A stretch of DNA of 64,000 bases. It comes from Acidobacteriota bacterium (GTDB lineage: Bacteria > Acidobacteriota > UBA6911 > RPQK01 > JAJDTT01). Positions 12,426 through 55,625 of the stretch are shown one piece after another. Numbering within the stretch: the first letter of the stretch is position 1; each line of letters starts with the position of its first letter. The position numbers and the translations under genes are program-made. The stretch lies in the NCBI GenBank assembly GCA_965263035.1, contig OZ253580.1, forward strand, positions 3,968,001 through 4,032,000, given 5' to 3'. The notes below the pieces were generated by a model. It saw nothing but the letters and a program-made list of their open reading frames with translations, did no database searches and was not told where the DNA came from.

Positions 12426-12552
12426 GGGATGGGAGCGGGGGTTTTTAACCCCCGATTCTTGGGATCGTGAGGGACAAGACTGTCTCCCTTGCTGCGTGGG
12501 GGACAACATGTCCCCCCTCCCATGTGGGGGACAAGACTGTCCCCCCTTCTAC
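12426..12552. repeat. REP-like cluster: GGATGGGAGCGGGGGTTTTTAACCCCCG hairpin plus three GTG(A/G)GGGACAA..TGTC(C/T)CCC units
   Basis: Units at 12467, 12496 and 12524; a reverse-oriented copy of the composite occurs at 54844-54902 plus 55533-55538. Confidence 0.8.
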
Positions 12553-51683: not shown

Positions 51684-54600
51684 GTGCGAAATTCCAGCTT
51701 AGTTATCCTGCTCCTTATCAGTGTTTTGTGGACGGCTGATTCGGGCATAGCTCAGAGTCAGGTTGCGGTGTTGGAGGGGACGGTCCGGGAACTGGACGGC
51801 GGTCCTCTGACCCGCGTCGAGATCCGGGCCCGGCGGACGGAGACCAACGAACTCTTGGTCCTCGAAACCGACGCCTCCGGCCTCTACGGCTGGGACGGTC
51901 TGCCGGTGGGAGACTACGAAGTCCTGGCCTCCAAGGATGGCTTCGATTCGCAGCGAAGGATGCCGGTCCGGCTCCAGGTCGGACAGCGGGTCCGCCTCGA
52001 TTTTCGCCTCCGCACCAGCCCGCCGGGGGAGGCTTCCAAGATCGAGGGGGACCTGTCCCGGCTCACCGTCGAGCGGGACGACGTGGGCCAGCTCATCGAT
52101 CGCAAGCAGCTGCGAAACATGCCCTCCAAGGAACGCAACTTCACGGACCTGGTCACCCTGGCTCCGGGGGCTGTCTCGAGGGGGACGCGGCGCATTCAGG
52201 TCCTGGGGATGAGCTGGCGGGACAACCTGACCTATTTCGATGGGACCCTCATCACCGGCGGCGACGGGTCTACCAACATGACTCCCTCGTCGGAAGCCAT
52301 CCGGGAATTCGATGTCAAGACCGGCCTCTATTCGGCGCAGTACGGCATTCGCTCAGGAGGTCAGGTACTGTTGGTGAGCCGGCACGGCGGCAACCGTTTC
52401 CATGGCGGCCTCTTCTGGTTTCACCGCAACGACAATCTGGATGCGCGAAACTACTTCGAACAGCGGAAGGCGGAATTCAAACGGAATCAGATGGGGGGCA
52501 CTCTGGGGGGTCCCCTGATCCTGCCCGGTCTGAACCGGAATCGGGACAGCGCCTGGTTTTTCATCTCCTATCTGCATTACACGATTCGGGAGACGCTTCC
52601 CCTGACGGCCGTGGTGCCCACTCCGGAACAACGTGAGGGCCGGTTCGCCGGCGCCATCCTGGATCCGGTGACTGGGAACCCGTTTCCCGACAATCGAATT
52701 CCGGCCCATCGAATCGACCCGGTGACCCTGCAACTGCTCAGCTTCTACCCTCTTCCCAACACTGCGGGACCCCTCAACTTCACGAGTCCCGATTCCAAGC
52801 GGCCGCACGACAATCGGCAGGTCATCGCCCGCGTCGACCTGAGGACCTCTTCGTCCAGCAGTTGGGCATTCCGTTTCGCCGGTGATCGACGGCCCACGAC
52901 CCGGTCCAGAGTTTTCAGCGTCTTCACAACCCGGATGCCGCTCGGGAGCTACAGCCAAGCCATCACCAACACCCGGAGGCTCTCGGCAGGATCGGTCAAC
53001 TATTTCGGTCTGCACTGGTTCCGGAGACCCTACACGGCCGCGGTGGCCCGGCCCAAGACCGAGGCCGTGAGGCGGTTGGGAATCCCCCAACTGTTGGAGA
53101 CGGAGATCGACCGCGACGGCATTCCCCTGGTGTCGATCCAGGGATATACGGGCTTCGGGGATCTCCAGCGGATCGGACCGGTCATCGTAGGGAACTGGCA
53201 GGTGAAAGACGATCTGGCACTTCAACGCGGGCCCCACTCGTTCCAGATGGGCGTGGAGTTCCGGCAGAATTACAATTTCTTCGGCCTGCAAGGGCGGTCC
53301 CGCTTCGATTTCTTCGATCGTTACACCGGGAACGCGCTTGCCGACTTCCTCTTGGGTTACCCGTCCAGGACCCTGTTGGGAGGCGAGGAACGCCGGGGCA
53401 GTTATCACCAGAACAGCATCTACAGCTACCTGCAGGACCGTTGGCGCATCACGCCGGCGTTGGCTCTGACCCTGGGCCTCCGGTACGAATGGAGAAACCC
53501 GTGGCGGGACAAACGGGGATTCATGGGCAACTTCGATCCCGTCTCCGGAGAACTCTTTCCTCTTCTCCTGGACCTGGAACTGGCCCCGGGAGAAACGGGC
53601 CGCTTCCGTCCCAATTTTCCGCTGGTGGAGTGGCGGCCCTGGGAGGGACTGCTGCCCCGGCTGGGAATGGCTCTTCGGCTCGGCCAATCCTCGGTGCTCA
53701 ATCTGGGACTCGGGCTCTATTCCAATGAGACGGATCTCTCGATGATTCAAGGACTGGGGAAGAATCCCCGGCCCGGATCCCGGCTTCTGACCTTCAACGG
53801 CCCGCTGGAGAGTCCCGGGTTGACCCTCTCCGATCCCTTTCCTGCCGCGCTGGCCAGTTCAGCCGTTCCCACCTTGACGGGACACGTGACACCCACGCCG
53901 CTGCCCCGGACCCGTACCTGGGGACTGTCGCTGCAGCACCGCTGGACCCCCGACCTGATACTGGACATGGGCTACCAGAACTCGCGGACCGGCGGACGGT
54001 TGGAGACGGTCTCCTTCAACGACGCCGTACCCGGCAGCGGTGACCGGCAATCCCGGCGCCCCTTTCCGGAACTGCAATCGGTCCTGTTCACGGCGGCCTT
54101 TGCCGATGCCTGGTATCACAGCTCCTTCCTCCAGTTGGAAAAGAGGCCGGGTCCCGACGGGCTCCGCTTGCAGGGGTCCTTTTCCTGGGCGAGCCTGATC
54201 GATACGGGGGGCGGAGACCAGGGGAACCAGAGCGACTTGCTGCTTCGGTCCATCAACGTGTCGCCGGAGCTGAATCGAGGCGTATCGGACTCCCAGATCA
54301 AGAAGCGTTTACTCTTGTCCGGCAGCTACGACCTTCCCTTCGGTTCCAGAAGGCGATTCGTGCGGACCGGATGGGCGGGACGAATTCTGGGCGGCTGGTC
54401 GCTCCAGGGCATTTCCACCTTCCAGGACGGAGCCTGGTTCACCGTCTATTTGCCCGGTGACCCGCTCGACACCGGGTCCCATTATTCTCAGTGGCCCGAT
54501 CGCCTCCGTGAAGCCAATCTGCAGCCGTCGGAGCGGCATCCCCAGCGCTGGTTCGACACCGCCGCCTTCGCCCGGCCGGAGGGCTTTCGCTACGGAAACG

Positions 54601-54845
54601 GAGGGCGCAACACCATCGAGGGTCCCGGGGTCATCAACCTCGATGTCTCCCTCCGCCGGGTCTTGCAGGTGCGGGACGAGGAGACTCTCGAGGTGAGGCT
54701 GGAGGCGTTCAACAGCCTCAACCGCGCCAACTTCAACCCCAGGGTGCGGGACGGGATCACCCAGTTTGGAACCCCCGAATTCGGAGTCGTGGGCCGGGCC
54801 CTCGCCGGCCGCCAACTCCAGCTGGCGCTCAAGTACTCGTTCTAG
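51684..54845 (+). CDS. TonB-dependent receptor with a carboxypeptidase-regulatory N-terminal domain
   Basis: Signal peptide, FHRNDNLDARNYF, LQDRWRITP, C-terminal QLALKYSF. Confidence 0.9.
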   Translation: MRNSSLVILLLISVLWTADSGIAQSQVAVLEGTVRELDGGPLTRVEIRARRTETNELLVLETDASGLYGWDGLPVGDYEVLASKDGFDSQRRMPVRLQVGQRVRLDFRLRTSPPGEASKIEGDLSRLTVERDDVGQLIDRKQLRNMPSKERNFTDLVTLAPGAVSRGTRRIQVLGMSWRDNLTYFDGTLITGGDGSTNMTPSSEAIREFDVKTGLYSAQYGIRSGGQVLLVSRHGGNRFHGGLFWFHRNDNLDARNYFEQRKAEFKRNQMGGTLGGPLILPGLNRNRDSAWFFISYLHYTIRETLPLTAVVPTPEQREGRFAGAILDPVTGNPFPDNRIPAHRIDPVTLQLLSFYPLPNTAGPLNFTSPDSKRPHDNRQVIARVDLRTSSSSSWAFRFAGDRRPTTRSRVFSVFTTRMPLGSYSQAITNTRRLSAGSVNYFGLHWFRRPYTAAVARPKTEAVRRLGIPQLLETEIDRDGIPLVSIQGYTGFGDLQRIGPVIVGNWQVKDDLALQRGPHSFQMGVEFRQNYNFFGLQGRSRFDFFDRYTGNALADFLLGYPSRTLLGGEERRGSYHQNSIYSYLQDRWRITPALALTLGLRYEWRNPWRDKRGFMGNFDPVSGELFPLLLDLELAPGETGRFRPNFPLVEWRPWEGLLPRLGMALRLGQSSVLNLGLGLYSNETDLSMIQGLGKNPRPGSRLLTFNGPLESPGLTLSDPFPAALASSAVPTLTGHVTPTPLPRTRTWGLSLQHRWTPDLILDMGYQNSRTGGRLETVSFNDAVPGSGDRQSRRPFPELQSVLFTAAFADAWYHSSFLQLEKRPGPDGLRLQGSFSWASLIDTGGGDQGNQSDLLLRSINVSPELNRGVSDSQIKKRLLLSGSYDLPFGSRRRFVRTGWAGRILGGWSLQGISTFQDGAWFTVYLPGDPLDTGSHYSQWPDRLREANLQPSERHPQRWFDTAAFARPEGFRYGNGGRNTIEGPGVINLDVSLRRVLQVRDEETLEVRLEAFNSLNRANFNPRVRDGITQFGTPEFGVVGRALAGRQLQLALKYSF

Positions 54846-54902
54846 GAGGGGACATTCTTGTCCCCCACAGTGGCAAGAATCGGGGGTTGAAAACCCCCGC
54901 TC
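54844..54902. repeat. REP-like composite (same family as 12426-12490), serving as the 5' exon of the intron
   Basis: AGGAGGGGACATTCTTGTCCCCCAC...CAAGAATCGGGGGTTGAAAACCCCCGCTC. Confidence 0.8.
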
Positions 54903-55532
54903 GTGCGCCCGACATGGGCTGTATCTAAGGGATGAAAGATCCCAAGGGAGGTGATGGGACCAACCCTAGCCGAACCGCAAGGCGTAGCCGCGAGGTGAAG
55001 CTGAAGGAAGCGGAAGGCAAACCCACGACCGCAGGAACACGAACCGGCAGCGAGGCCGGGTGCGGGCGGTGAGCTGGCGAGCAACAGCGAAACCCGAACC
55101 CCATCCAGACGTACCAGGTAGAGCCGGGCGGCCCGGGGGGAAAGATGCAGCACCTTACTCGGGGAGATCTCAAGGGTGAGAGCCTTTGAGAAGTCAGCAG
55201 AGGTCATAGTAGCGAAGAAGCCGGATAATGCCGGTGGAGCGAAGGACCGAAGGAGTCGGACGGGCCCTATGGTGGACTCGTCAGCGGGATCGCAACTACC
55301 TCCGGAAACGGGGCGGGGGGAGGCCCCTCGGACCCGGCACGGAAGGCCCAAGGGTGGAACCCGTCAAGCCGGAAGGGCGGAGATCAAGTCCCAGCGGCGG
55401 CGAAAACCGGAAAGAAAGGCCCTTTACGAGGCTCGAAAGAGCCTCGAGTGACTCCAACCGCCGGATACTGAAAACGGTACGTCCGGTGGTGTGGGAGGGT
55501 GCAGGGGCGCAATCCCCTGCACTCGACCCGAT
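54903..55532 (+). ncRNA. Group IIC intron, ORF-less (630 nt)
   Basis: 5' GTGCG; 3' ACCCGAT; domain V ACCGCCGGATACTGAAAACGGTACGTCCGGTGGT with CGC triad; domain VI hairpin; AAGTCAGCAGAGGTCATAGTA motif; about 200-nt domain IV closed by GGAGTC/GACTCC. Confidence 0.92.
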
Positions 55533-55625
55533 CCATCCTTTTTCTTCCGGGATTTCGGCGGACCCCGGCCGGCGGGAAAGCCTTTCAGAGACAAGAGGGA
55601 GTTCGTGTGCAGCTACCTCACCGGG

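Follow-up and report, generated by a model that had tools for sequence, protein, structure and literature searches.

An ORF-less group IIC intron at REP-like hairpins of an Acidobacteriota genome, probably mobilised by the reverse transcriptase of its sister copies

The stretch of DNA analysed here, called the window, comprises 64,000 nt (G000:C1:3968001-4032000) of the single 6.2-Mb contig of an Acidobacteriota bacterium, and it carries a 630-nt group IIC intron that has no open reading frame (ORF) for a reverse transcriptase (RT) and lies directly behind a hairpin resembling a repetitive extragenic palindrome (REP). We consider it highly probable that this is a non-autonomous intron which spreads onto REP-like hairpins through the RT of its sister copies. 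This view is carried by features that can be read from the letters themselves: the intron's anatomy and copy number, a shared deletion, the target rule, the covariation of exon-binding site 1 (EBS1) with intron-binding site 1 (IBS1), the strand bias and the precise empty sites. As background, ORF-less group II introns of bacteria are rare, mostly immobile and nearly always found alongside a related RT-encoding intron (PMC4424553), they are increased in certain genomes (PMC8919778), and IIC introns read the DNA hairpins of terminators (PMC12584367) and of attC sites (PMC3001079).

Results

A group IIC ribozyme without a reverse transcriptase

The intron starts with GTGCG at 54903 and ends with GAT at 55532 (Table 1), and these canonical ends bear out the 630-nt element which a sequence-only reading of the window had placed, together with its flanks, at 54844-55538. 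Domains I-III are recognised above the gathering scores by RF02001 (D1-D4-3, 81.4 bits, 54984-55151) and RF01998 (D1-D4-1, 47.2 bits, 55154-55247), while the IIC-type domain V with its CGC triad and the domain VI noted in the same reading are found in agreement by the RF00029 alignment and by the fold. CGC instead of AGC in domain V and a compact ribozyme are traits of group IIC; here the ribozyme without domain IV measures 426 nt (630 - 204). In the fold of the whole intron domain V is recovered, and domain VI has an unpaired GA (55525-55526) 7-8 nt from the 3' end. The element had been described as free of an RT, and a search with the RVT_1 profile indeed gave no match in the window, all eight matches of the genome lying elsewhere; the window copy does not have in its domain IV the RT/maturase that marks an autonomous mobile group II intron. 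Domain IV had also been called neatly base-paired and about 200 nt long. Its 204 nt do lack an RT, but the fold is multi-branched on a 7-bp closing stem (GGAGUCG/GACUCC) with a modest z-score of only -2.1, and "neatly" overstates it.

Twenty-two ORF-less copies and two intact RT-encoding copies

Copies of the intron were counted by BLASTN against the 6.2-Mb genome. The family numbers 24 copies, of which 22 are ORF-less and two encode an RT, and a further 51-nt fragment was also detected. Nineteen ORF-less copies are intact (630-632 nt, 94.9-100% identity), five of them being identical and nine at 99.7% or above, whereas three are broken by inserts; the two long copies, 1848 nt each, match intron positions 1-517 and 540-630 at about 92%. 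Alignment with the long form shows the ORF deleted from the short one, beginning at about the start codon and leaving about 10 nt ahead of the stop, and a single deletion junction is common to all 22 short copies (the 19 intact ones by length, the three interrupted ones matching through it). The window copy is thus no single relic. Segmental duplication was rejected as the origin of the copies, since the outer flanks differ among all 24. An alignment of the 19 intact copies has 47 variable columns out of 632, and many of the variants split the copies 11:8 or 13:6, which indicates at least two subfamilies and more than one source lineage that multiplied.

An RT-encoding relative, whose existence had been left to a search, is provided by the two 1848-nt copies, which differ from each other at 6 of 1848 positions and both keep an open 515-codon frame. 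Their protein (466-aa ATG ORF) matches RVT_1 (3e-38) and GIIM and reaches 362.7 bits with TIGR04416 (cut-off 300). Its best match of solved structure is the GsI-IIC RT (6ar1, 451 bits, residues 56-451 to chain 2-399), followed by the group II RT/maturase 7uim (346 bits), LtrA (124) and the group II maturase RT 6me0 (110); by these structure matches, rather than by a tree, the RT/maturase would be class-C-like. M58 is the likely start, giving about 409 aa with YADD intact, and the protein has no extra C-terminal domain and apparently no room for an endonuclease domain.

These copies could also be the immobile fossils of a past burst, helper-dependent or not, that now survive as neutral passengers or, in 3' untranslated regions, as elements that only splice. 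Such an outcome would be in keeping with the general loss of retromobility by bacterial introns without intron-encoded proteins (PMC4424553), with the three copies already broken by insertions and with the sister genome G001, which keeps one ORF-less copy and no cognate RT. It sits poorly, however, with five copies at different loci that are 100% identical and nine at 99.7% or above, with two helper ORFs that are both intact, and with shared variants implying that several source lineages proliferated. We regard fossils as unlikely.

The inserts in the three broken copies recur, whole or in part, elsewhere in the genome. A 1782-bp insertion sequence (G000:C1 3067891-3069672 and 3923461-3925242) lies within two of the introns; it carries a 388-aa ORF, presumably IS3-like by its C-terminal motif, and has about 10 genome copies. 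The two within ORF-less introns, which differ in position and point in opposite directions, exceed by far the expectation from the introns' roughly 0.3% share of the genome. In the third, positions 121-264 are replaced by a 4.7-kb insert (G000:C1 5180577-5185272) with a 710-aa ORF that has a weak Bac_DnaA-type ATPase match and an N-terminus which we take to resemble large serine recombinases; parts of this insert recur at four other loci.

Every copy follows a hairpin and GCTC

All 24 copies directly follow a hairpin plus GCTC, and the intron always begins exactly 3 nt past the stem. Nineteen stand behind the hairpin CGGCG[G/A]CAAGAAAG[C/T]CGCCG of the main repeat family, two, including the window copy, behind a 28-copy variant, CGGGGGTTNAAAACCCCCG, and three behind other hairpins. 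At least five hairpin variants are used (the stems with covarying G/A and C/T, the G5 type, GGGGACAAGGATGTCCCCG and GGCCATCAGGTCGATGGCC). The BLASTN flanks thus place 21 copies in two counted repeat families, and neither of the outcomes named beforehand as contrary to the reading, that is, copies at unrelated terminators or a lone relic without a helper RT, was found.

At the window locus the intron directly follows the hairpin plus CTC, and the empty copy on the minus strand gives the GCTC/CCATCC junction (the slash marks the insertion point), as described in the sequence-only reading. An intrinsic terminator was rejected as the target: a scan with the terminator consensus called none at 54881-54899, where no T-run directly follows the stem, and the repeat consensus continues after the stem as CTCC(ca). 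The first base of the 3' exon is uninformative, because the C is also present in nearly all empty sites.

The same reading had proposed that a loop GAGC pairs, as EBS1, with the exon end GCTC as IBS1. The loop is present, and it co-varies with the exon end between species. In the sister species the exon ends in CCTC and the EBS1 loop reads GAGG, both in the single ORF-less copies of G001, G003 and G008 and in five RT-encoding copies of G003 (the set compared is G000, G001, G003 and G008, with the flank of the G004 copy set aside). In addition, a genome-wide census of hairpins (perfect stems of at least 6 bp, loop 3-9, then CTC/C) counts 20 occupied and 310 empty sites with G-ending stems as against 0 occupied and 321 empty sites with C-ending stems. 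Targeting by a hairpin plus a short (3-4 nt) IBS1, a criterion of group IIC, is what this family displays.

Precise empty sites and a bias towards the lagging-strand template

The locus downstream of the upstream ORF is found in all eight other genomes of the genus. In G006 and G007 the orthologous site reads ..cgggggttgaaaacccccgctc/ccatcc.. without interruption, in G002, G003 and G005 the target hairpin is absent from the orthologous locus, and G002, G006 and G007 give no match to the intron. The empty orthologous sites in genomes that lack the intron indicate that at the window site the repeat predates the intron and that the insertion was exact, without the target duplication that had already been judged missing. 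In RNA, the junction of the ligated exons would be ..CCCCCGCUC/CCAUCC...

The replication origin lies near 2.87 Mb (dnaA match at 2,872,067; cumulative GC skew minimum near 2.85 Mb). Relative to it, 20 of the 24 introns are on the lagging-strand template (binomial p 0.0015). The empty hairpin-plus-CTC units are biased too, in the direction opposite to the introns: the lagging-strand template carries the CGGCG..CTC strand in only 63 of 182 units, which differs from the introns with a Fisher p of 7.6e-6.

The repeats that serve as targets

The main repeat type has 282 copies at up to 3 substitutions, of which 19 are occupied, 182 are empty and followed by CTC (CTCC in 180) and 81 have other triplets at this place; the subfamily of the window, the G5 type, numbers 28 copies when up to 2 substitutions are allowed, two of them occupied. 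According to a home-made codon-usage gene caller, which is rough and covers 91.5% of the genome, 224 of the 282 units are outside called genes, and 95 of these 224 lie between convergent genes. Neighbouring units less than 60 nt apart form 107 pairs, 84 direct and 23 inverted, which is not the alternating arrangement of bacterial interspersed mosaic elements (BIMEs). The two-hairpin unit of the 54848-54899 type is found again ahead of most G5-type hairpins (28 in all), and next to the empty site of the window (12468-12545) there are three tandem GGGGGACA(A/T)G(A/T)(C/-)TGTCCCCC-type hairpins, the same type as 54848-54865.

Two matches to Y1_Tnp, which resemble REP-associated tyrosine transposases (RAYTs), score 36-39 bits in this genome. 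One (G000:C1 3478135-3478365, plus strand) is located between two direct-orientation units of the window's subfamily. The other (G000:C1 2482924-2483100, minus strand) belongs to a frame of 238 codons in which HVH and YWDR-type motifs occur; this frame ends 2 nt before a main-type unit occupied by an intron of another family, family B below. No inverted REP pair was seen to flank Y1_Tnp at either match. Of the multicopy REP family that had been put forward as the target, the GC-rich palindrome stands, with 282 mostly extragenic copies of the main type and 28 of the window's type; the RAYT link holds in part and the BIME-like arrangement is not there. 'REP-like' therefore appears a fair name, while the status of bona fide REPs mobilised by a RAYT would, on these sequences, be only partly supported.

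With RAYT-like matches beside REP units, passive spread may be envisaged, in which a REP-plus-intron unit is moved by a RAYT-like transposase or by recombination between REPs rather than by reverse splicing; enzymes of the IS200/IS605 type also act on the lagging-strand template (PMC6006769). Nevertheless, the intron stands behind at least five hairpin variants, always at a distance of exactly 3 nt from the stem, and most copies are bordered by a REP on a single flank. EBS1 and the exon end vary together, and the empty REPs are biased the other way. All of this makes passive spread very improbable.

Repeated loss of the ORF in the genus

The four ORF-less forms of the genus have different deletion junctions, and in every one a stem remains from the base of the arm that bore the ORF. 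Identities were compared over four segments, in order the core (1-356), two parts of domain IV (357-440 and 441-520) and domains V-VI, and they amount to 100 / 97.7 / 98.8 / 100% between the short and long forms of G003, to 98.6 / 64 / 87.7 / 100% between those of G000, and to 94.7 / 82.6 / 90 / 94.1% between the short forms of G000 and G001. Judged by these values, the G003 short form is a fresh derivative of the G003 long form. In G000, domain IV of the short form is closer to that of the G001 short form than to that of the resident long form, and a simple recent deletion from a resident RT copy was rejected as its origin (domain IV arm 64-88% identical, nearer to the G001 ORF-less copy). 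Along the domain IV arm positions about 441-520 are conserved among the four ORF-less forms and 357-440 are variable. From the differences in junction and identity, the ORF was lost at least three times and the short lineage of G000 and G001 is old. Long and short copies stand at 5:1 in G003 and at 2:22 in G000. The complete genome of G001 has a single ORF-less copy of 648 nt (G001:C1 4991714-4992361, after a GGGGGGACAGGGATGTCCCCCC hairpin plus CTC) and no cognate RT, the best RT match in it being 36% identical.

Proposed course of mobility

According to the reading that we prefer, the element would be a complete ribozyme (domains I-VI) from whose domain IV the RT/maturase ORF has been looped out. 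It would be transcribed by read-through from the upstream gene, whose position on the same strand means that such a transcript would carry the intron in sense. We infer that the RNA is then bound by the RT/maturase from the two 1848-nt sister copies and spliced with it, and that the resulting ribonucleoprotein (RNP) reverse-splices into single-stranded DNA just past a REP-like hairpin, which it would recognise by the hairpin and by a 4-bp EBS1-IBS1 pairing of GAGC with GCUC. By analogy with endonuclease-less IIC introns, cDNA synthesis would start from a primer at the replication fork, on the lagging-strand template. The outcome would be an RT-less form at 22 copies against two autonomous ones.

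Several observations weigh against this course or loosen its links. The Rfam check suggested by the sequence-only reading does find domains V/VI (RF00029, 55456-55532, E 6e-6), but in the window copy the score of 39.0 bits is 1 bit under the gathering score of 40; seven sister copies reach 40.3-40.4 bits. The EBS1-IBS1 covariation, as far as the compared flanks tell, counts as a single compensatory change separating lineages. In the strand test the terminus is taken to be opposite the origin, whereas the skew maximum is at 5.8 Mb. The crude home-made caller puts only 15 of the 24 copies in the same orientation as the nearest gene upstream, so not all copies need be transcribed. Finally, the 5' arm of domain IV is 64% (357-440) and 88% (441-520) identical between the ORF-less and the resident RT copies, and because of this low identity recognition by the resident RT/maturase is assumed rather than evident.

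The last point, together with the four further RT-encoding introns of the genome, also leaves some room for splicing or mobilisation of the ORF-less intron by a different protein, either a host factor or the RT of that unrelated intron family (984 kb, 5.05, 5.54 and 5.84 Mb). The family, however, has another ribozyme type (RF02003, AGC in domain V), the ORF-less core is 98.6-100% identical to the class-C-like copies, and as a rule a group II RT/maturase serves the RNA of its own intron, which makes another protein scarcely credible.

Table 1. Positions of the intron, its parts, its flanks and related elements (window coordinates unless a contig is given)
Feature	Position	Strand	Basis and remarks
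1053-aa ORF upstream	51684..54845	+	ORF list; stop codon 57 nt 5' of the intron, same strand; the rough gene caller puts the nearest upstream gene, in the same orientation, at 58 nt
First hairpin of composite repeat unit (GGGGAC-ATTCTT-GTCCCC)	54848..54865	+	sequence
REP-like target hairpin CGGGGGTT-GAA-AACCCCCG (= CGGGGGTTGAAAACCCCCG)	54881..54899	+	intron begins 3 nt past the stem (after CTC)
IBS1 GCTC, last 4 nt of 5' exon	54899..54902	+	the stem's final base is this G
ORF-less group IIC intron, 630 nt	54903..55532	+	sequence, Rfam matches, fold; 100% identical to 4 other genomic copies
Ribozyme domains I-III	54903..55247	+	RF02001 and RF01998 matches; 98.6% identity to RT-encoding copy over positions 1-356
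Candidate EBS1 stem-loop GCUG-GCGAGCAA-CAGC	55073..55088	+	hairpin in RF02001 consensus; GAGC at 55079-55082
Domain IV without ORF, 204 nt	55252..55455	+	fold
Deletion-junction hairpin CGAGGCUC-GAAA-GAGCCUCG	55427..55446	+	base of the stem holding the ORF in full-length copies
Domain V	55458..55489	+	RF00029 alignment, fold; CGC at 55459-55461 where the model has AGC
Domain VI and 3' end	55493..55532	+	RF00029 alignment, fold; intron ends GAU; unpaired A at 55526, candidate branch point
First 3'-exon base C, candidate IBS3	55533..55533	+	C in 23/24 occupied and 180/182 empty sites
Paralogous empty site, same hairpin subfamily	12426..12460	-	..CGGGGGTTAAAAACCCCCGCTC/CCATCCC (also written ..cgggggttaaaaacccccgctc/ccatccc)
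Family B introns, 7 copies	G000:C1 2437044-2436403(-), 3066875-3067516(+), 6115527-6114886(-), 3743283-3743925(+), 3351629-3352271(+), 2482801-2482159(-), 681390-680748(-)		
Third intron family, 4 copies	G000:C1 about 983491-985512, 5052866-5057108 (split), 5536885-5538891, 5841468-5843473		

Other introns of the genome

A second ORF-less group II intron family, family B, has seven copies of 642-643 nt (91.5-99.4% identity; RF02005, 165 bits; AGC in domain V). Six of the seven are inserted within the loop of the same REP on the opposite strand (GGAGCGGCGRCT/intron/TTCTTGYCGCC), and all seven are on the lagging-strand template. In family B the exon sequence GCGACU could base-pair with a loop that reads AGUCGC, and the seventh copy, at another site ending GUGCCC, has GGGUGC at that place. 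BLASTN found no RT-encoding relative of family B in the genome. The third family (RF02003, AGC in domain V) consists of four RT-encoding copies of about 2 kb with 438-471-codon frames, one of them interrupted. Its 114-nt 3' flank recurs at 20 or more other places, and the family therefore seems to home into another multicopy element. Near the best RF00029 match of the genome (52 bits, G000:C1 340877-340952, minus strand) there is no match to RVT_1, nor one to D1-D4 within 3.5 kb; the site may represent either another ORF-less intron or a fragment. Lastly, a weak RVT_1 match (30.7 bits, G000:C1 1811265-1811774, minus strand) falls in a 1253-codon open frame and not in the context of a group II intron.

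Discussion

Taken jointly, the data invite a wider picture of the genus, which we put forward tentatively and with more doubt than confidence. In this picture the genus would hold a bacterial counterpart of the long and short interspersed nuclear elements (LINE/SINE), layered on a third parasite. RT-less IIC introns would have arisen at least three times, and the old RT-less lineage of G000 and G001, its core and EBS1 kept matched to the autonomous intron, would now outnumber that intron 11:1 by using REP units as near-unlimited safe landing sites, the REP units being themselves non-autonomous and tied to RAYT-like genes. Since the unrelated RT-less family B also uses the REP and has no cognate RT in the genome, REPs may be general havens for group II introns, and an RT may serve non-cognate introns.

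The best-studied proliferation of RT-less introns, in Thermosynechococcus, concerns a different intron class, while the present genome offers a dominant RT-less IIC lineage with a simple rule (hairpin plus GCUC), several hundred empty sites and 24 occupied ones. This renders testable how a IIC RNP is loaded in trans, what the RNP reads in a DNA hairpin and how repeats shape the spread of introns. Retroelements, and not insertion sequences alone, can thus land on REP-type repeats, and a compact RT-less IIC ribozyme with a separable helper has the format of intron-based tools. A literature search for group II introns and REPs together yielded a single table entry (PMC1525189), the supplementary list of PMC8919778 might include this genome, and nothing specific to group II introns of Acidobacteria was found.

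The closest precedent is the ORF-less TeI3 introns of Thermosynechococcus elongatus. Those introns belong not to group IIC but to the IIB/CL class. Like the 22 of our genome, the 17 ORF-less TeI3 copies have a common deletion breakpoint in domain IV (PMC2882425). RT-encoding relatives coexist with them, which is also the case here, and the protein of these relatives acts in trans in T. elongatus (PMC2882425). On the other hand, TeI3 diversified its targets by changes in the EBS, with high temperature implicated (same source), whereas here one hairpin rule opens hundreds of pre-existing repeats.

Among introns of group IIC, B.h.I1, O.i.I1 and GsI-IIC insert after intrinsic terminators (PMC12584367, PMC4748821). 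The present intron resembles them in its small ribozyme, in its insertion past a hairpin with a short IBS1, in the RT of its sister copies, which appears to be without an endonuclease domain and has the GsI-IIC RT as its best match of solved structure, and in its bias for the lagging-strand template. In contrast to them, the window copy has no ORF, the hairpins are REP-like, multicopy and without a T-run, and non-autonomous copies exceed autonomous ones 22:2. The group IIC-attC introns of integrons are likewise a IIC lineage specialised on the repeated hairpin sites of another mobile system, but those target attC recombination sites and encode their RT (PMC3001079). REPs also serve as safe landing sites for ISPpu9, ISPpu10 and IS1397 (PMC1525189), which are mostly DNA transposons, and in Pseudomonas putida KT2440 two of nine copies of a group II intron are listed as REP-associated in the same paper, as compared with 24 of 24 behind a hairpin, and at least 21 in two counted repeat families, in the genome studied here. 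Against this background, we regard the element as a variation on a known theme, a IIC lineage in which the RT-less form is dominant and whose home is a family of REP-like repeats.

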